Source: a virus
Lineage: Duplodnaviria; Heunggongvirae; Uroviricota; Caudoviricetes
DNA: 8,659 nucleotides
Virus record (IMG/VR): IMGVR_UViG_2681813273_000011
Direction: 5' to 3' (one strand)
Shown: positions 1,589 to 8,659 of the stretch, in pieces
How the letters are laid out: every line of letters begins with the position of its first letter
How positions within the stretch are numbered: the first letter of the stretch is position 1
Translations under genes and position numbers: made by a program
The notes under the pieces: model-generated
The model's database searches: none
The model's input: the letters and a program-made list of their open reading frames with translations, nothing else
Told to the model about the DNA's origin: nothing

Positions 1589-1822
1589 TTACTCCCTGAC
1601 AGGATTTGCAGGCCACTCAATATCAGGTGCAGTTGATGTATCAACACGATTCAACAATACCCGATATTTATTCCATGCCTCCAGCAACGATCTTTCTTCC
1701 TCCGTTGCGATTTCCAGATCTACAGCATCCTGCAGTGGCGCAATATACTCACTAAATTCCTGGATGTAGAACTGTGTGGTGACGGTCTTCCAGCCATTCG
1801 GCTCCTGCTGTATCGAAGCATA
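1589..1822 (-). pseudogene. tfa: Tail fibre assembly protein (Tfa) C-terminal remnant, no start codon
   Basis: Minus-strand frame reads ...[61 protein letters not shown]. This aligns with the C-terminus of the intact tfa' in this window (...[45 protein letters not shown]). An in-frame stop lies upstream (plus-strand cta at 1823-1825). Confidence 0.65.
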
Positions 1823-1885
1823 CTAGGCTATTTCAATATCGCTATGCTGCGGCAGCATTTAACCCCTTGTAATTCATCGCCATAA

Positions 1886-1914
1886 TTGATTTAATTCACA
1901 AATAAAACTATAAT
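1886..1914 (+). promoter_or_regulatory. sigma70-like promoter of methyltransferase cassette, copy 1
   Basis: TTGATT (1886-1891), 17-bp spacer, consensus TATAAT (1909-1914) directly abutting the ATG at 1915. Confidence 0.5.
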
Positions 1915-2366
1915 ATGGTGAAATTAATGAAAAAAAACACAGATGATGGGGCTAAAATTTACACACCACTTACCCTAAAGCTTTATGACTGGTGGGTTTT
2001 GGGAGTATCAAATCGGCTTGCATGGGGATGTCCTACAAAGGAACACCTTCTTCCACACTTTCTGGAACATTTAGGTAACAACCATCTGGATATTGGTGTT
2101 GGAACTGGGTTTTACCTTACTCACGTACCTGAGAGTAGTCTGATATCTTTAATGGATTTGAACGAAGCTAGCCTGAACGCGGCATCTACAAGGGCTGGGG
2201 AATCAAAAATTAAACATAAAATTAGCCATGATGTTTTTGAACCTTATCCCGCGGCGTTACATGGTCAATTTGATTCCATTTCCATGTTTTACCTTCTTCA
2301 CTGCCTGCCTGGAAATATATCTACAAAAAGCTGTGTAATACGCAATGCGGCGCAGGCCTTAACTGA
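1915..2366 (+). pseudogene. Class I SAM-dependent methyltransferase, copy 1, truncated after codon 150 by an IS110-family fragment
   Basis: Identical to copies 2 and 3 through 2366, then diverges. The remainder of track ORF 1915..2529 is read-through into antisense IS sequence. Confidence 0.8.
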
Positions 2367-2987
2367 ACCCCATGAACCAGAAGAAACGATTTCAGACGTT
2401 GCCTTGCATGCCGTAAATCATCGCGGGCAGATGCCCATGCCCGGGCCAAATCCCGGAATGCCTCATCTTCAATGCCGGGTACGTAGACAGCAGAAAGATC
2501 TCCTGCACGCAGTGAACGCACAAGTCTGATGGCATCACGGCGATCGGTTTTAACCCGCTCCCCCGGTTTTTTCGGGATAAGTGAGGGGGCGCAGACCATG
2601 CAGTCAAAACCGGATTTCACCAGCCGACGATAAAGTCCATAACCACAGGGCCCCGCTTCATAAACGATACTGACCTGCGATGACTTTGACCTGAGACGTT
2701 TACAAAGATTCTGAATATCAGTAGGTGATGTGCCAATTTTACCCATCAGTTCAACAGGTTCTGAATTGATAGCATAAGCGACAGTAATCGATTCTTTGTG
2801 AACATCTAACCCGACGTACAATGTGTTATTGTTGTTCATGCTGGCCTCCGTGGTGGAAATACCGGGGTGTAGCAACAGCTCACCCATGCGGCTCTGACAA
2901 CGATGTTAACCCGCGTTAAATATCCCACGTTGGCCAGCATCTGTCTCACGGAAAGTCATACTGCCTTACATTGTGTCTGGTTCTTCC
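2367..2987 (-). mobile_element. IS110-family insertion sequence fragment: 5' non-coding leader (2840-2987) plus N-terminal recombinase domain (2367-2839)
   Basis: Minus-strand ORF starting MNNNNTLYVGLDVHKESITVAYA... with KTDRRDA motif is typical of the IS110-family DEDD transposase N-terminal domain. ATG at 2839 with GGAGG 5 nt upstream. About 157 codons remain before the junction with the methyltransferase at 2366/2367. The right boundary at 2987/2988 is inferred from where homology to the other tfa remnants resumes. Confidence 0.75.
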
Positions 2988-3199
2988 GGCCACTCAATAT
3001 CAGGTGCAGTTGATGTATCAACACGGTTCAGCAACACCCGATACTTCTTCCAGGCTTCCAGCAACGAGTTTTCTTCCTCCGTTGCGATCTCCAGATCTAC
3101 AGCATCCTGAAGTGGCGCAATATGCTCACTGAATTCCTGGATGTAGAACTGTGTGGTGACGGTCTTCCAGCCATTCGGCTCCTGCTGTATCGAAGCATA
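2988..3199 (-). pseudogene. tfa: Tfa C-terminal remnant, copy b; its 3' end is replaced by the IS110-family leader
   Basis: Minus frame ...[50 protein letters not shown], then reads into IS sequence. Differs from copy a at 13 positions across roughly 150 bp (1611-1760), then is identical towards the methyltransferase. Confidence 0.65.
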
Positions 3200-3262
3200 C
3201 TAGGCTATTTCAATATCGCTATGCTGCGGCAGCATTTAACCCCTTGTAATTCATCGCCATAA

Positions 3263-3291
3263 TTGATTTAATTCACAAATAAAACTATAAT
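3263..3291 (+). promoter_or_regulatory. sigma70-like promoter of methyltransferase cassette, copy 2
   Basis: TTGATT, 17-bp spacer, TATAAT (3286-3291), identical to copy 1. Confidence 0.5.
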
Positions 3292-3960
3292 ATGGTGAAA
3301 TTAATGAAAAAAAACACAGATGATGGGGCTAAAATTTACACACCACTTACCCTAAAGCTTTATGACTGGTGGGTTTTGGGAGTATCAAATCGGCTTGCAT
3401 GGGGATGTCCTACAAAGGAACACCTTCTTCCACACTTTCTGGAACATTTAGGTAACAACCATCTGGATATTGGTGTTGGAACTGGGTTTTACCTTACTCA
3501 CGTACCTGAGAGTAGTCTGATATCTTTAATGGATTTGAACGAAGCTAGCCTGAACGCGGCATCTACAAGGGCTGGGGAATCAAAAATTAAACATAAAATT
3601 AGCCATGATGTTTTTGAACCTTATCCCGCGGCGTTACATGGTCAATTTGATTCCATTTCCATGTTTTACCTTCTTCACTGCCTGCCTGGAAATATATCTA
3701 CAAAAAGCTGTGTAATACGCAATGCGGCGCAGGCCTTAACTGATGATGGAACTCTATACGGAGCCACAATTCTTGGCGATGGAGTTGTGCACAATAGCTT
3801 CGGTCAAAAACTGATGCGCATTTACAATCAGAAAGGCATCTTTTCAAACACAAAAGATTCCGAAGAAGGCTTAACACATATACTCTCAGAGCATTTCGAG
3901 AATGTTAAAACCAAGGTTCAAGGTACTGTAGTAATGTTTTCCGCTTCAGGGAAAAAATAG
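3292..3960 (+). CDS. Class I SAM-dependent methyltransferase (222 aa), substrate unknown
   Basis: ORF track 3292..3960. Contains a Rossmann-fold motif I (LDIGVGTGF), an acidic residue in ISLMDLNE, motif II-like FDSISMFYLLHCLP and motif III-like LTDDGTLYGATIL. I see no DPPY/NPPY or C5-cytosine motifs, so it is probably not a DNA methyltransferase. An alternative start is the ATG at 3304. Confidence 0.75.
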   Translation: MVKLMKKNTDDGAKIYTPLTLKLYDWWVLGVSNRLAWGCPTKEHLLPHFLEHLGNNHLDIGVGTGFYLTHVPESSLISLMDLNEASLNAASTRAGESKIKHKISHDVFEPYPAALHGQFDSISMFYLLHCLPGNISTKSCVIRNAAQALTDDGTLYGATILGDGVVHNSFGQKLMRIYNQKGIFSNTKDSEEGLTHILSEHFENVKTKVQGTVVMFSASGKK

Positions 3961-3967
3961 CATCCAA

Positions 3968-4000
3968 CCGCAGCACGTTCTTGCTTAAGACGTGCTGCGG
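3968..4000. terminator. Conserved hairpin between the convergent methyltransferase and tfa remnant; probable bidirectional terminator
   Basis: Perfect 10-bp inverted repeat ccgcagcacg / cgtgctgcgg around a 13-nt loop, 8 nt after the methyltransferase stop. The minus-strand side is followed by a T-rich tract. Confidence 0.5.
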
Positions 4001-4005
4001 CATAA

Positions 4006-4095
4006 TCCCAATGATTACTCCCTGACAGGGTTCGTAGGCCACTCAATATCAGGTGCAGTTGATGTATCAACACGGTTCAGCAACACCCGATACTT
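4006..4095 (-). pseudogene. tfa: Tfa extreme C-terminal remnant (about 28 codons), fused to the pin pseudogene
   Basis: Minus frame ...[27 protein letters not shown] with stop (plus-strand tta) at 4006-4008. Homology to copy b ends near 4095. Confidence 0.6.
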
Positions 4096-4341
4096 TTTCT
4101 AGGCTTCCACCACCAGCACGACAAGATGCCGCATACAGTGCCCCAGTCAGTCCAGTTTTCAGACAACCAGTGCGTCACCTTTTTGAAGGCGCTTTAAAGC
4201 ACGTTTTAATCCAGGTCGGCCTGTCCTTGTTCCGCTTAATTTATCTTCAAATATTTGTTCATATCCTGCACAAACAAGAGCGTTTCGTTGCAGGTCTGTA
4301 TTCTGGTCATTTGTTGATACCCTTACATAGCCAATCAGCAC
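4096..4341 (-). pseudogene. pin: Serine DNA invertase (Pin/Gin/Hin family) N-terminal pseudogene
   Basis: GTG start at 4341 with GGGAG upstream. Reads (M)LIGYVRVSTNDQNTDLQRNALVCAGYEQIFEDKLSGTRTGRPGLKRALKRLQKGDALVV*, where the stop replaces the Trp of the conserved VVWKLDRLGRS (tgg to tga). A second in-frame tga follows, and homology ends after about 82 codons. Confidence 0.8.
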
Positions 4342-4395
4342 GCTGAATCTCCCGTCCAAAAGCACAAATCATGCCATGCAGGCCAGAAACCGCCA

Positions 4396-4406
4396 TTATC
4401 TAAAAC
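4396..4406. other. Isolated pix/gix left half-site at the repeat-unit boundary
   Basis: ttatctaaaac is identical to the left half of the full site at 6296-6321. Identity with the downstream copy ends at 4406/4407, one base before the 2-bp core. Confidence 0.55.
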
Positions 4407-4706
4407 AAGATAAAAAGAGACCGAACACGATTCCTGTTTTCGTCAACAAACAATAAAACCCTTTAAAATTAATGCGTTAAATAAATTTACGTTCATCTTT
4501 TAATCCCTGACACGTACCATTGCATATTAATACATTCAACCAGTTACCATTTTTTTCGAGTTTTTTAGAGAAATTTTCGGGAATATTTCAGGTCAATCCA
4601 TGCAGACGCAAGCAATTCCTGTATTGAATAATTCCGTAGCAATTATGTAAAATCATCTCCGGCTGATTTTCATTCAAACTCGCGCTATCGAACATCCATC
4701 AGCCAG

Positions 4707-4739
4707 CCGTGGCACGTTCTTGCATACGACGTGCTACGG
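4707..4739. repeat. Stand-alone copy of the conserved hairpin element in AT-rich DNA
   Basis: ccgtggcacg - ttcttgcatacga - cgtgctacgg: a 10-bp stem with one G-T pair and the same loop family as the tfa-associated hairpins. Followed by a T-rich tract. Confidence 0.45.
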
Positions 4740-4863
4740 TTTCCTTTACGATTTGGGGTTGCGACTTTACCTCTATTGATAATGCATTCCGGCAGAACGT
4801 TCAAATATGAAGTACGATGTTTAACTAACCGAAAAACAAGAACAATACGGTGCAAGCAAGCTA

Positions 4864-4986
4864 TGAGGTAGCCTGAGTTTAACGGACACTCCTTCCTGAA
4901 ATAGAATGGCATCAGAAGGAGCTAATAATGAGCAGAAAAACCCAACGTTACTCTAAAGAGTTCAAAGCCGAAGCTGTCAGAACGGT
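4864..4986 (+). mobile_element. IS3-family (IS600-like) left end, truncated after 123 bp
   Basis: Starts TGAGGTAGCCTGAGTTTAACGGACACTCC..., identical to 8613-8659. An orfA start (ATG 4928, MSRKTQRYSKEFKAEAVRTV) matches my recollection of IS600 OrfA. The sequence switches abruptly at 4986/4987 to the tfa-remnant repeat. Confidence 0.7.
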
Positions 4987-5099
4987 TCATCCAGATCTAC
5001 AGCATCCTGAAGTGGCGCAATATGCTCACTGAATTCCTGGATGTAGAACTGTGTGGTGACGGTCTTCCAGCCATTCGGCTCCTGCTGTATCGAAGCATA
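4987..5099 (-). pseudogene. tfa: Tfa C-terminal remnant, third copy, 3'-truncated at the IS600-like junction
   Basis: Identical to 3087-3199 of copy b apart from the SNP at 5100 noted under the 1900-bp repeat finding. It begins at ccagatctacag directly after the IS fragment. Confidence 0.55.
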
Positions 5100-5162
5100 C
5101 CAGGCTATTTCAATATCGCTATGCTGCGGCAGCATTTAACCCCTTGTAATTCATCGCCATAA

Positions 5163-5191
5163 TTGATTTAATTCACAAATAAAACTATAAT
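5163..5191 (+). promoter_or_regulatory. sigma70-like promoter of methyltransferase cassette, copy 3
   Basis: Identical TTGATT - 17 bp - TATAAT arrangement. Confidence 0.5.
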
Positions 5192-5860
5192 ATGGTGAAA
5201 TTAATGAAAAAAAACACAGATGATGGGGCTAAAATTTACACACCACTTACCCTAAAGCTTTATGACTGGTGGGTTTTGGGAGTATCAAATCGGCTTGCAT
5301 GGGGATGTCCTACAAAGGAACACCTTCTTCCACACTTTCTGGAACATTTAGGTAACAACCATCTGGATATTGGTGTTGGAACTGGGTTTTACCTTACTCA
5401 CGTACCTGAGAGTAGTCTGATATCTTTAATGGATTTGAACGAAGCTAGCCTGAACGCGGCATCTACAAGGGCTGGGGAATCAAAAATTAAACATAAAATT
5501 AGCCATGATGTTTTTGAACCTTATCCCGCGGCGTTACATGGTCAATTTGATTCCATTTCCATGTTTTACCTTCTTCACTGCCTGCCTGGAAATATATCTA
5601 CAAAAAGCTGTGTAATACGCAATGCGGCGCAGGCCTTAACTGATGATGGAACTCTATACGGAGCCACAATTCTTGGCGATGGAGTTGTGCACAATAGCTT
5701 CGGTCAAAAACTGATGCGCATTTACAATCAGAAAGGCATCTTTTCAAACACAAAAGATTCCGAAGAAGGCTTAACACATATACTCTCAGAGCATTTCGAG
5801 AATGTTAAAACCAGGGTTCAAGGTACTGTAGTAATGTTTTCCGCTTCAGGGAAAAAATAG
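5192..5860 (+). CDS. Class I SAM-dependent methyltransferase (222 aa), copy 3
   Basis: ORF track 5192..5860. Differs from copy 2 by one residue (K to R near the C-terminus). Confidence 0.75.
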   Translation: MVKLMKKNTDDGAKIYTPLTLKLYDWWVLGVSNRLAWGCPTKEHLLPHFLEHLGNNHLDIGVGTGFYLTHVPESSLISLMDLNEASLNAASTRAGESKIKHKISHDVFEPYPAALHGQFDSISMFYLLHCLPGNISTKSCVIRNAAQALTDDGTLYGATILGDGVVHNSFGQKLMRIYNQKGIFSNTKDSEEGLTHILSEHFENVKTRVQGTVVMFSASGKK

Positions 5861-5867
5861 CATCCAA

Positions 5868-5900
5868 CCGCAGCACGTTCTTGCTTAAGACGTGCTGCGG
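5868..5900. terminator. Conserved hairpin, probable bidirectional terminator (copy of 3968-4000)
   Basis: Identical 10-bp inverted repeat with 13-nt loop. Confidence 0.5.
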
Positions 5901-5905
5901 CATAA

Positions 5906-5995
5906 TCCCAATGATTACTCCCTGACAGGGTTCGTAGGCCACTCAATATCAGGTGCAGTTGATGTATCAACACGGTTCAGCAACACCCGATACTT
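5906..5995 (-). pseudogene. tfa: Tfa extreme C-terminal remnant (copy of 4006-4095)
   Basis: Identical to 4006-4095. Confidence 0.6.
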
Positions 5996-6241
5996 TTTCT
6001 AGGCTTCCACCACCAGCACGACAAGATGCCGCATACAGTGCCCCAGTCAGTCCAGTTTTCAGACAACCAGTGCGTCACCTTTTTGAAGGCGCTTTAAAGC
6101 ACGTTTTAATCCAGGTCGGCCTGTCCTTGTTCCGCTTAATTTATCTTCAAATATTTGTTCATATCCTGCACAAACAAGAGCGTTTCGTTGCAGGTCTGTA
6201 TTCTGGTCATTTGTTGATACCCTTACATAGCCAATCAGCAC
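5996..6241 (-). pseudogene. pin: Serine DNA invertase (Pin/Gin/Hin family) N-terminal pseudogene, adjacent to the pix site
   Basis: Identical to 4096-4341, with the same two premature stops. The GTG start at 6241 lies 55 bp from the pix site, as expected for a gin/pin gene next to its crossover site. Confidence 0.8.
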
Positions 6242-6295
6242 GCTGAATCTCCCGTCCAAAAGCACAAATCATGCCATGCAGGCCAGAAACCGCCA

Positions 6296-6321
6296 TTATC
6301 TAAAACCTCGGTTTACGAGAA
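6296..6321. other. pix/gix-type 26-bp crossover site (12-bp half-site, 2-bp core, 12-bp half-site)
   Basis: ttatctaaaacc-tc-ggtttacgagaa. Differs at about 3 of 26 positions from the Mu gix sequence TTATCCAAAACCTCGGTTTACAGGAA as I recall it. Lies between pin and the tail-fibre segment, and the fibre reading frame (NLGLRE...) opens inside it. Confidence 0.75.
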
Positions 6322-7080
6322 CTCGGCACAAGCGGGGAGAAAATACCGTTACTCAGTACAGCGAATACCTGGACTAATCGACAAACATTCAGCGGTGGCC
6401 TTTCTGGTGAACTATCCGGCAATGCTTCTACAGCTGCAAAATTAAAAACTGCCAGGAAAATAAGCAATGTGGCTTTTGATGGTTCCTCCGATATCACATT
6501 AAAAGCAAGTCATGTTGGTGCGTTTGCCTTAGGGAAAACAGGAAGCACCGTTGCGAATGATAAAGCAGTTGGATGGAACTGGAGTAGCGGAGCCTATAAC
6601 GCAACTATTAGTGGTGCATCAACGTTAATTATTCATTTTTATATGGGAGAAGGAAGTTGTCCTGCAGCTCAGTTTCGGATTAATTATAAAAATGGCGGTA
6701 TTTTTTATCGTTCAGCCCGTGATGGTTATGGTTTTGAAGCCGACTGGTCCGAATTTTACACCACCAGAAAACCTTCAGCAGGAGATGTTGGTGCACTGCC
6801 GTTATCTGGTGGTCAACTGAATGGTGCACTGGGTATCGGAACATCCAGTGCTCTTGGCGGTAATTCGATTGTATTGGGTGATAATGACACGGGCTTTAAA
6901 CAAAAAGGCGATGGTAATCTGGATGTTTATGCTAATAACGTCCATGTTATGCGCTTTGTCTCCGGAAGCATTCAAAGTAATAAAACCATAAATATTACGG
7001 GACGTGTTAATCCCTCGGATTACGGTAACTTTGATTCCCGCTATGTGAGAGATGTCAGACTTGGCACACGAGTTGTTTAG
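6304..7080 (+). CDS. Tail fibre variable C-terminal segment (Sv-like), silent orientation, no start codon; ends at an in-frame TAG
   Basis: Open frame from inside the pix site: NLGLRELGTSGEKIPLLSTANTWTNRQTFSGG... to ...RYVRDVRLGTRVV*. ORF track 6469..7080 is the same frame. Homology to the other fibre C-terminus continues for 49 codons past the TAG, to a TAA at 7228-7230. Confidence 0.7.
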   Translation, partial: NLGLRELGTSGEKIPLLSTANTWTNRQTFSGGLSGELSGNASTAAKLKTARKISNVAFDGSSDITLKASHVGAFALGKTGSTVANDKAVGWNWSSGAYNATISGASTLIIHFYMGEGSCPAAQFRINYKNGGIFYRSARDGYGFEADWSEFYTTRKPSAGDVGALPLSGGQLNGALGIGTSSALGGNSIVLGDNDTGFKQKGDGNLDVYANNVHVMRFVSGSIQSNKTINITGRVNPSDYGNFDSRYVRDVRLGTRVV

Positions 7081-7232
7081 ACCATGAAGAAAGGCGTGAT
7101 GTATGAAAAATCAGGCCATGTAATCACGGGGCTTGGTATTATCGGTGAAGTCGATGGTGATGATCCGGCAGTATTCAGACCAATACAAAAGTTAATTAAC
7201 GGAACATGGTATAACGTATCGCAGGTATAATC

Positions 7233-7766
7233 ATGCAGCATTTAAAAAACATTGTCGCAGGTAATCCAAAAACCGTTGAACAATACCAGCTAACAAAGAA
7301 TTTTGATGTTATCTGGTTATGGTCCGAAGATGGAAAAAATTGGCATGAGGAATTAAAAAACTTTCAGGAGGATACAATAAAACTGGCTTACACAGTTGAG
7401 GGAATAATTATTGCTATAGACAAGGATGTATCAGCAATTAATCCAGAAGGTTTAAGTGTCGTTGAGTTGCCTGATATTACAGCAAATCGCCGGGCTGATA
7501 TTTCGGGCAACTGGATGTTCAAAGATGGTGCGGTGATAAAGCGAACTTATACCGAGGAAGAGCAAAGGCAACAAGCGGAAAATGAAAAGCAGAGCCTGCT
7601 GCAGCTCGTCAGGGATAAAACCCAGCTGTGGGACTCTCAGCTACAGCTGGGCATCATTTCCGATGAGAATAAACAAAAATTAACCGAGTGGATGCTCTAT
7701 GCGCAGAAGGTTGAATCCACAGACACCTCCAGCCTGCCAGTAACGTTTCCCGAACAACCAGAATGA
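7233..7766 (+). CDS. tfa: Tail fibre assembly protein (Tfa/U-like chaperone)
   Basis: ORF track 7233..7766, [22 protein letters not shown]... N-terminus is similar to the convergent tfa' and the C-terminus is divergent. The ATG lies 2 nt after the extended fibre stop. Confidence 0.85.
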
Positions 7767-7769
7767 GAG

Positions 7770-7799
7770 AAGGCCCGCTATCGGGCCTTAATTTTTATT
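7770..7799. terminator. Bidirectional rho-independent terminator between the convergent tfa genes
   Basis: 8-bp GC-rich stem aaggcccg / cgggcctt with 4-nt loop (7770-7789), followed by a T-rich tract (aatttttatt). Confidence 0.65.
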
Positions 7800-8322
7800 C
7801 AGGCTTTTGTGGCCATTCAGGATTTGCCGTATCCACACGGCTGACCAGAACACTGTAGCGTTCCCATGCTTCCAGTCGTGTGCGTTCCTCGTCTGTTGCC
7901 ATATTCAGCCTGACAGCTCGTTCCAGCGGCTGGATGACTGATTCAGCTTCGGAAAGCAATGCGGCCTTTTGTGATTCGGCCTGTTGTTGCAGTTCCTGTT
8001 CTGTATATTCCCTCTTTACTACTTTACCATCCAGAAACATCCATTTTCCGTTATTGTCTGCGTGACGATTTGCCGTAATATCAGGAACTTCAACTATGCT
8101 TAGCCCTTCAGGATTAATAGTTGAAACGTCTTTACTGACAGCAACGATGATGTTGTTCTCATCGTAAGCAATTTTTATGGTGTCTGGCTGAAAATTCTTT
8201 TGTTCCTCATACCAGTTTTTGCCATCTTCGCAAAAGAGCCATACCACGCCCGCTTTTTTAGTTAGCTGGTATTGTTCCGGTGTTTTCGGATTCCCGGCCT
8301 TAATATTTTTCAGGTGCATCAT
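7795..8322 (-). CDS. tfa: Tail fibre assembly protein (Tfa'), alternative copy
   Basis: ORF track 7795..8358. Start chosen at ATG 8322 ([22 protein letters not shown]...) by alignment with the plus-strand tfa and its position just after the upstream fibre stop. Confidence 0.85.
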
Positions 8323-8323
8323 C

Positions 8324-8611
8324 TTAAACACTCCCCACGTTGTACCATATTCCCCCAATCAATTTCTGAATTGGCCTTCTGGCAACAGTGTCGACAATAT
8401 CATCCGCATTGCTGTTAATTGCGGCTGTTAAAACATAACCTGACGCATCGCCAAAGCCGTAGTCGCGCCATACGTTTTTATATTCAATGCTGCCAAGACG
8501 AATATCCCGAACGACATGATTATGCAGCCATGTGCTTAACCAGTTGTTTTCCCACACTGAACCATAAATATCGCCACTAGACGCAACTTGCGCACCACTT
8601 CCCAGCGCAAA
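8324..8611 (-). CDS. Tail fibre variable C-terminal segment (S'v-like); 5' portion cut off by an IS600-like insertion
   Basis: Minus frame ...[95 protein letters not shown]. The C-terminus parallels the plus-strand fibre segment (VRDVRLG / [12 protein letters not shown]). The first 9 codons of track ORF 8324..8638 are IS-derived. Confidence 0.75.
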
Positions 8612-8612
8612 T

Positions 8613-8659
8613 TGAGGTAGCCTGAGTTTAACGGACACTCCTTCCTGAAATAGAATGGC
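8613..8659 (+). mobile_element. IS3-family (IS600-like) left end; element continues off the right edge of the window
   Basis: Identical to the first 47 bp of the fragment at 4864. Confidence 0.7.

Follow-up and report, generated by a model that had tools for sequence, protein, structure and literature searches.

A decayed tail-fibre inversion switch of apparent Gin/PinB type beside trpA in Escherichia coli and Shigella, most likely frozen in the present genome

Tail-fibre inversion switches of the Din family have been textbook material since the description of Gin and the G segment of Mu. The 8,659-nucleotide stretch of DNA analysed here, which we refer to as the window, ends in what appears to be such a switch with its invertase gene and both of its fibre cassettes damaged, and this raises the questions of what kind of switch it was, whether it is already known, and whether it can still invert. 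Our answer, held with considerable though not complete confidence, is that positions 6013-8659 are a decayed host-range switch of Gin/PinB type (Din family), carried by a lambdoid prophage that adjoins trpA in E. coli and Shigella, and most likely frozen here. With the same high degree of confidence, we regard it as the element found in prophage Phi4 of the E. coli ST131 strain EC958, with the crossover sites of the Shigella boydii B segment. The element and its inversion in trans have both been published (EC958 Phi4), and the sites are known from S. boydii; as a switch it offers nothing new.

An earlier note, made from the letters of the sequence, had claimed a layout of this kind, and every component that it listed was found, with only small corrections. 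The order in the window is invertase stub, crossover site, silent cassette, chaperone, hairpin, chaperone and cassette on the other strand, and IS600, which is the Mu G-type organisation of two mirror-image sets, each made up of a fibre C-terminus and a Caudo_TAP chaperone. The features, together with a half-site that lies further upstream, are as follows.

4396-4406, no strand assigned: outer half-site of a second stub unit (copy B), seen in the sequence, breaking off at site position 11-12
6013-6241, minus strand: 5' stub of a gin/pinB-like serine DNA invertase, about codons 1-75 (translation, Pfam Resolvase)
6062-6241, no strand assigned: DNA expected to hold a Fis-dependent recombinational enhancer (homology to the 5' coding region of Mu gin)
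6296-6321, no strand assigned: 26-bp crossover site of bixR / Phi4_3prime type (consensus match and identity to EC958 Phi4_3prime)
6310-7230, plus strand: silent fibre C-terminal cassette, in the position of Mu S' (Pfam gp37_C, E=9.5e-8)
7233-7766, plus strand: first tfa, a tail-fibre assembly chaperone of 177 aa, Mu U'-like (Caudo_TAP, E=4.8e-34)
7770-7789, plus strand: GC-rich hairpin with a T-run after it, separating the two convergent chaperone genes (terminator scan)
7795-8322, minus strand: second tfa chaperone, 175 aa, Mu U-like (Caudo_TAP, E=7.9e-37)
8324-8612, minus strand: S-like cassette oriented for expression, its last 95 codons (8327-8611) and stop (collinear with the L006 fibre)
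8613-8659, plus strand: left end of IS600 (47 nt, 100% identical to full IS600 copies)

Three kinds of damage had been proposed and all three are present, namely a stub with two TGA codons and a truncation, a TAG in the silent cassette and IS600 in the oriented cassette. The range first given for the switch, 6241-8659, does hold real components, but it begins at the start codon of the stub and thereby leaves the stub itself outside. Similarly, position 8612, proposed as the right-hand end of an invertible stretch from 6309, is where the cassette is cut by the IS and does not bound the invertible segment; with the IS left out of account, about 2,916 bp would separate the start of the first site from that of the second.

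The invertase stub opens with GTG at 6241-6239 on the minus strand and meets TGA at 6061-6059 (codon 61) and again at 6049-6047 (codon 65), and its homology ends near 6013, where the 3' fragment of a tfa gene begins, fused to the stub. The 60-aa product still matches Pfam Resolvase (E=2.9e-15) and retains the active-site Ser9 context VRVSTNDQ, and 175 of its 180 nucleotides (97%) are identical to codons 1-60 of Mu gin. No intact serine invertase of about 190 aa (Resolvase plus a C-terminal HTH) lies next to the site; nothing more of the catalytic domain is left, there is no DNA-binding domain, and the stub is, judged by its sequence, a non-functional remnant of a Din-family invertase and not a working member. 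The identical 60-aa ORF was found in 7,443 blocks of an E. coli/Shigella contig collection. What the stub may have kept is the enhancer. The gin coding region contains three Fis sites (PMC3378877), and the Hin enhancer spans 65 bp and lies about 100 bp from hix (PMC3798978); by homology, the equivalent element would be expected within 6062-6241. A loose scan with a 15-bp Fis core gave many matches in the window and in Mu alike and no clean pair of sites. In ST131 loci that still invert, the stub differs from that of the window at only 3 positions over the span 5861-6309.

Both fibre cassettes were compared with intact genes in relatives. The silent cassette aligns with the last 308 residues of a 934-aa fibre (L001), from which it differs by an in-frame TAG at 7078-7080, a codon that is CAG in two intact homologues from E. 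coli, L001 and L025, and otherwise by two substitutions and a single one-residue gap. The second cassette is collinear with the intact 918-aa fibre gene of L006 as far as 8612 and is there severed from the remainder of that gene. The stretch 7177-8322 shows 81.6% DNA identity to Mu U'/U, and the C-terminal part of the second chaperone is near-identical to Mu U. A scan of the window found no promoter-like site ahead of the cassettes, and in L001 the fibre reading frame crosses the crossover site, reading ...IEY-L-GLRE... at that point.

These features are consistent with a familiar mechanism. In the intact form, the constant 5' fibre part is continued, across the 26-bp site, by one or the other of two mirror-image cassettes, both consisting of a fibre C-terminus with its own chaperone gene. 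Strand exchange takes place at the GA core of the two sites, which are inverted relative to each other; it is carried out by a serine invertase, with the help of Fis bound to an enhancer within the 5' portion of the gene for that enzyme, and it flips the segment and swaps the cassettes.

Evidence that the segment has flipped in this way comes from relatives of the window, not from its own strain. Two orientation states are seen: the window, L006, L014, L021 and L032 are in state 1, and L012, L013, L029 and L033 are in state 2. They have in common the stub and the outer half-sites GGTTTTAGATAA and GGTATTCGATAA, while the inner halves, TTCTCG... and TTCCTG..., are exchanged exactly at the core; when tested, the alignment breakpoint between the states fell in the 26-bp sites, as a Din switch requires. 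Among complete E. coli genomes, the state 1 junction occurs in 302 and the state 2 junction in 152. The TAG is common to L006 (state 1) and L012 (state 2), and thus at least one inversion postdates it. At one and the same locus next to trpA, the serial ST131 isolates 4/1-1 and 4/0 have the segment in opposite orientations, each with a truncated recombinase pseudogene. Forde et al. 2014 found both orientations of the Phi4 segment in PacBio reads of EC958 and concluded that another invertase acts in trans (PMC4134206), and the P segment of e14 is likewise inverted in trans by PinQ (PMC12529663). The suggestion that an invertase supplied from elsewhere might still turn this segment is thereby borne out, in that the segment is found in either orientation among genomes that share the dead stub, and the trans-inversion of EC958 Phi4 is on record. 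Other invertases flipped the segment in trans once the stub and the TAG were in place, and its ST131 orthologues flip to this day.

Whether this holds for the present genome depends on what lies to the right of IS600. The element inserted between 8612 and 8613, next to the target triplet AAT (8610-8612), and the full IS600 copies that it matches are annotated as 'IS3-like element IS600 family transposase'. The window stops 47 nt into it, and statements about the DNA beyond rest on relatives; within the window, a consensus search found only one full crossover site. Two full sites are present in L006, L012, L014, L021 and L032, the bixL-type 26-mer expected as the second site in state 1 being TTCCTGTAAACCGAGGTATTCGATAA. 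The relatives of the window are of two kinds. L014, which differs from it at 1 position across 5645-8659, carries a simple IS600 insertion with a 3-bp duplication of AAT, an arrangement in which AATCCCCCATCTGTTTTAAAAATG would come after the right end of the IS, and has its second site at 13247, 1,867 bp past the insertion point. L007, L008 and L009 are identical to the window over 5645-8659, and in all three what follows IS600 on the right is unrelated DNA and not the remainder of the fibre gene; no second site was found within the 7.9 kb available in L005 and L007-L010. Of these relatives, only the L014-type lineage has the second site just beyond the IS, and since the DNA beyond IS600 in L007-L009 is not the fibre remainder, the second site is probably not just past the IS in the window's genome. 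In the closest relatives, recombination at IS600 would have cut the element off from its second site and from the remaining fibre gene.

Of the alternatives to a frozen element, the one that fares best is that the switch is physically active, with a Din-family invertase from another prophage flipping the IS600-bearing segment between 6296-6321 and a second site just past the IS. L014 shows precisely such an arrangement, the stub and site of the window are virtually identical to those of the ST131 loci that invert in trans, and were the window's genome like L014, the IS-enlarged segment could still flip. The three genomes that match the window base for base speak against it, however, and even with flipping, the TAG and IS600, one in each cassette, would prevent either orientation from yielding an intact fibre; we consider this reading rather unlikely. 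As both cassettes are dead, the flank beyond IS600 in L007-L009 is unrelated and their available DNA lacks a second site, the element is most likely a frozen fossil in the window's genome, from which no functional fibre would be made in either orientation.

Far less probable is that the remnant has been domesticated, its fibre fragments or chaperones serving the host, for instance as a barrier to phage adsorption. E. coli K-12 offers a precedent, in that the chimeric StfE2 formed after PinQ inverts the e14 P segment blocks phage adsorption (PMC12529663), and the dead-stub element is widely kept in E. coli and Shigella. The disabling lesions in both cassettes, the detached constant part and the lack of any promoter-like site ahead of the cassettes all weigh against such a role, and vertical inheritance of a prophage remnant explains the wide retention equally well.

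A frozen fossil nevertheless belongs to a particular kind of switch, and it is the crossover site that identifies it. The site at 6296-6321 reads TTATCTAAAACC TC GGTTTACGAGAA, with halves of the form TTC...AAAC and GTTT...GAA in imperfect dyad symmetry about the core dinucleotide TC/GA at 6308-6309, and is the sole match in the window to TTN5AAACCNNGGTTTN5AA, even with 2 mismatches allowed; the site itself has 0 mismatches, against a chance expectation of 0.07 matches in the window. These match statistics, together with the comparative data, rule out a chance resemblance to a Din switch. As had been anticipated, the site aligns with the gix, bix, pix, cix and hix references. It is identical to EC958 Phi4_3prime at 26 of 26 positions, with the flank ccgcca identical too, agrees with Mu gix at 23 of 26 and, by our own count, with bixR at 24 (the outer half being identical) and with pixR at 19. 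The core is GA in gix and bix and AA in pixL/R, cix and hix (bix sequences from Table 3 of PMC3241671). That the switch is specifically e14-type Pin/pix, as the pin and pix labels of the earlier note imply, is the least probable reading of all and is refuted by the site and stub comparisons, since although Pin belongs to the same family and the general layout is alike, the core is GA and not AA, the site is closer to bixR and Phi4_3prime than to pixR, and the stub has 91-94% DNA identity to gin of Mu, D108 and SfMu, all of which make it Gin/PinB-type.

A second stub unit lies upstream. This copy B has its stub ORF at 4159-4365 on the minus strand (the 60-aa version starting at 4341) and differs from the unit described above, copy C, at 2 of 1,317 positions, the two diverging at 4407 and 6307, respectively. 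Its methyltransferase gene is of the common YbcY type found at the ends of many lambdoid prophages. In copy B the half-site stops at the crossover point, one base short of the core, and gives way to chromosomal DNA (4407-4863) from a distant locus, with 4404-4864 matching the sequence upstream of pphA in E. coli. We found this junction in none of the complete E. coli genomes, GTDB species representatives or JGI metagenome contigs, and for a unit of about 3 kb we estimate at roughly 0.2% the chance that a breakpoint placed at random lies no more than 2 nt from the core. The junction at 4396-4407 might be a scar that a trans-acting Din invertase left behind in an off-target or aborted reaction, either through recombination with a chromosomal quasi-site or through a double-strand break at the core that was repaired illegitimately. 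Canonical recombination with a quasi-site can be rejected: the pphA-upstream sequence matches the site at only 11 of 26 positions in register, lacks a TC core on the strand that would have to be used to link the outer half with the flank seen here, and requires one extra base change at the junction. Given these mismatches, we keep the scar reading only as a doubtful one; if true, it would mean that the orphan site of a dead switch helped to rearrange a Shigella chromosome.

The value of these observations lies mainly in annotation and assembly, and there is little in them as discovery, since the element was published before. The fibre and invertase fragments at this locus should be annotated as pseudogenes, near-identical genomes that differ in orientation here represent switch states and not errors, and such loci can yield spurious contigs or duplications in long-read assemblies. 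The locus is also a natural demonstration that a dead switch with two sites and the 5' stub of an invertase keeps flipping, until in Shigella the activity of IS600 finally disables it.

Among known systems, the Mu G segment shares with the window the order of invertase, site, S'-like, U'-like, U-like and S-like genes, equal chaperone lengths (177 and 175 aa), the GA core and a fibre frame that runs through the site. In contrast to Mu, the window has as its host element a lambdoid prophage whose constant fibre part is of lambda Stf type, and not a Mu-type phage, its cassettes are only partly similar to Mu S/S', and its invertase is dead. The e14 P segment (PMC12529663) is similar in being a cryptic-prophage fibre segment inverted by the invertase of another prophage, PinQ or PinR. 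It differs in its AA-core sites and invertase subgroup, and strains such as L003 retain an intact Pin gene within e14 itself.

The S. boydii B segment is closer with respect to the sites, as all 26 positions agree between bixL and the fibre-side site of the relatives in state 1, and likewise between bixR and their stub-side site in state 2. The S. boydii pinB gene that accompanies the invertible B segment is reportedly functional, whereas the window keeps only a stub of about 75 codons, and the likeness rests on the sites. EC958 Phi4 (Forde et al. 2014, PMC4134206) has the same trpA-adjacent position in ST131 isolates, the same truncated stub, an identical stub-side site and flank, and the same mirror layout of cassettes and chaperones. 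In ST131 the site starts are 3,081 bp apart, which makes the segment longer than in the Shigella-type relatives (2,916 bp), and the C-terminus of one cassette differs from that of the window. The ST131 cassettes are intact, whereas those of the window carry the TAG in one and IS600 in the other.

The right-hand end of the window carries a tail-fibre inversion module in which every feature listed by the earlier note is found, as follows.

6241-6239 to 6049-6047, minus strand: reading frame of the invertase stub, GTG start at 6241-6239, 60 codons to a TGA at 6061-6059, second TGA at 6049-6047
6296-6321: crossover site, TTATCTAAAACC TC GGTTTACGAGAA, 55 bases upstream of the stub start codon
6310-7230, plus strand: first fibre C-terminus cassette, opening at the site core (gp37_C, E=9.5e-8)
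7233-7766: first Caudo_TAP chaperone gene, 177 aa
7770-7789: GC hairpin with T-run, between the first and second chaperone genes
8322-7795, minus strand: second Caudo_TAP chaperone gene, 175 aa
8611-8327, minus strand: last 95 codons of the second fibre C-terminus
From 8613: left end of IS600

This is the cassette architecture of the Mu G type. The first cassette is interrupted by a TAG at 7078-7080, where intact E. coli homologues have CAG, with the 49 codons downstream conserved. The 60-aa product of the stub matches Pfam Resolvase (E=2.9e-15), the second TGA follows four codons past the first, and invertase similarity ends at about 6013, at a junction with a 3' fragment of a tail-fibre assembly (tfa) gene; no complete invertase of the Din family lies within the window.

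The e14-type pin/pix label first given to this module does not hold, as both stub and site are of Gin/PinB type, with a gin-like stub and a GA core. The stub DNA is 91-94% identical to gin of Mu, D108 and SfMu, with 175/180 nt identical over codons 1-60 of Mu gin. Across the window the family consensus, even at two mismatches, is matched by the site at 6296-6321 alone (chance expectation 0.07), and no second full site is present. Read on the opposite strand as TTCTCGTAAACC GA GGTTTTAGATAA, it agrees with gix at 23/26 positions and with bixR, from the pinB-linked B segment of S. boydii, at 24/26, the outer half being identical and the GA core shared; pix, cix and hix have AA cores (PMC3241671, Table 3). 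Together with a six-base flank (ccgccaTTATCTAAAACCTCGGTTTACGAGAA), it is exactly the crossover site named 'Phi4_3prime' in E. coli ST131 EC958 (PMC4134206, Table 3), in which Phi4 is a trpA-adjacent prophage.

Evidence of inversion comes from the many E. coli and Shigella relatives sharing the 60-aa stub, which were recovered by exact-protein look-ups and have the segment in either of two orientations. The window and relative loci L006, L014, L021 and L032 are in state 1, with TTCTCGTAAACC-GA-GGTTTTAGATAA as the site next to the stub and TTCCTGTAAACC-GA-GGTATTCGATAA, which is bixL, as the one on the fibre side. In state 2 (L012, L013, L029 and L033), the inner half-sites are exchanged and the outer ones unmoved, giving TTCCTG...GGTTTTAGATAA, which is bixR, on the stub side and TTCTCG...GGTATTCGATAA on the fibre side. 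Alignment of the window with L012, from S. sonnei ATCC 29930, breaks exactly at the site (4990-6316 reverse, 6292-8612 forward); such a half-site swap with its breakpoint at the site is the mark of strand exchange at the core. Among complete E. coli genomes (n=5,426), the state 1 junction occurs in 302 and the state 2 junction in 152.

The dead stub and the TAG are common to loci of both states, and therefore at least one inversion postdates loss of the local invertase and was catalysed in trans. The earlier note had suggested such inversion by an invertase supplied from elsewhere, and it is borne out by these shared lesions in the relatives and by further evidence. Swedish serial ST131 isolates 4/1-1 and 4/0 have opposite states at one locus, where both have a truncated recombinase pseudogene. 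In PacBio reads of one culture, Forde et al. saw Phi4 in both orientations; they described its invertase as 'severely truncated' and suggested that the Phi1 invertase acts on it in trans (PMC4134206). Experiments with PinQ and the e14 P segment have likewise demonstrated action from one prophage on another (PMC12529663).

In L012 and L013 (S. sonnei ATCC 29930 and a relative; 7221-9848), which are in state 2, the TAG cassette is joined to the constant part and the called fibre is 875 aa, without its last 49 residues; the switch thus still flipped after one cassette had broken. In E. coli O25b:H4 strains H76 (NZ_CP015085.1) and H88 (NZ_CP015087.1), the chromosome is in state 1 and the strain has a further record, of 32.8 kb, in state 2, the latter probably being an 'alternative-orientation contig', the long-read assembly artefact of which Forde et al. 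warned.

The earlier note's placing of the enhancer within the 5' part of the gene for the invertase is in line with published work: the gin coding region contains three Fis sites (PMC3378877), and in the Hin system the enhancer spans 65 bp, is ~100 bp away from hix and is able to act from a distance too (PMC3798978). A loose scan for Fis motifs yielded many hits in the window and in Mu alike and no clean site pair. On the stub side of the crossover centre, 269 bp near-identical to Mu gin are kept, and the stub differs at only 3 positions from that of the inversion-competent ST131 loci. The recombinational enhancer would appear, from this conservation, to be retained.

In the window copy, which is in state 1, the stub-adjacent cassette (TAG, 177-aa chaperone gene) is silent and the far cassette (175-aa chaperone gene) is oriented towards the constant fibre part, yet is severed from it by IS600; neither orientation can give an intact fibre. 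L014 has IS600 simply inserted, with AAT duplicated (3 bp), and beyond it come the remainder of the fibre gene and the second site, 1,867 bp past the insertion point. In L007, L008 and L009, which match the window at all positions of 5645-8659, the right end of IS600 adjoins unrelated prophage DNA (lysis or regulatory genes in varying arrangements), and no second crossover site is found across the available 7.9 kb. This unrelated flank and missing site show that IS600-IS600 recombination has detached the segment in that lineage, and we consider it fairly probable that the window's genome resembles L007-L009 and that its element has lost the ability to flip locally. On the right side of the cassette IS600, DNA differs among otherwise near-identical genomes (L005, L007-L010 and L023 against L009), with lysis genes one way round and Q/RusA-side genes the other, which indicates repeated IS600-IS600 inversions or deletions inside the prophage region.

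Over its left two thirds the window is mosaic in structure. A unit of tfa fragment, YbcY-type class I SAM methyltransferase, tfa fragment and invertase stub occurs there in up to three copies (1597-6306).

From ~1597: copy A, cut at 2366 by partial ISSso6
2988-4406: copy B
4990-6306: copy C
1915-2366 (cut), 3292-3960, 5192-5860: methyltransferase copies
4159-4365, 6059-6265: stubs
1569-1686, 2946-3063, 3995-4112, 5895-6012: tfa 3'-end copies

Copies B and C have 2 differences over 1,317 positions. Each of the relatives fetched has just one unit, including L028, the closest to this block, and the repeated block is absent from every one of them; the repeat is therefore a recent duplication or an assembly artefact. 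The IS110-like ISSso6 (2360-2985, minus strand) retains the 5' half of its transposase gene and is abruptly joined, at 2366/2367, to internal sequence of methyltransferase copy A. The element's name, together with flanks near-identical to S. sonnei ATCC 29930, suggests S. sonnei as the origin of the window. The four tfa 3' ends flanking the methyltransferase units are 72-100% identical, one being joined to the truncated end of the invertase stub, and look like leftovers of successive tail-fibre module replacements at the prophage end.

At copy B (4396-4421; compare 6296-6321), the crossover site is reduced to its outer 11 nt (TTATCTAAAAC), ending at 4406. DNA from upstream of pphA in E. coli follows (4407-4863), and then only the first 125 bp of IS600 (4864-4988), oriented as the copy at 8613; this IS600 piece meets the middle of a tfa fragment, in copy C, at 4989/4990 without homology. 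Searches of complete E. coli genomes, GTDB representatives and JGI metagenomes gave no match to the half-site/pphA junction, and the block may reflect either a genuine rearrangement or a misassembly. Its breakpoint, one base off the core dinucleotide and so off the point of cleavage, hints that an invertase took part; that is unlikely, however, because the pphA side is a poor quasi-site with a non-matching core.

As for known systems, the claim of a Gin-type host-range switch stands, since the order and gene sizes mirror those of Mu (gin, gix, S' part, U' of 177 aa, U of 175 aa, S part), with 81.6% DNA identity over the two chaperone genes. Unlike Mu, the host element is a lambdoid prophage adjoining trpA, as seen in relatives, where it has J and lom together with a long Stf-type fibre gene that runs into the segment at its 3' end. 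The element is the same as Phi4 of EC958, and it has the crossover sites known from the B segment of S. boydii; both it and its inversion by an enzyme in trans despite a dead invertase are already known and published. Intact, it works like Mu G/Gin, and the window copy is a Din-family remnant.
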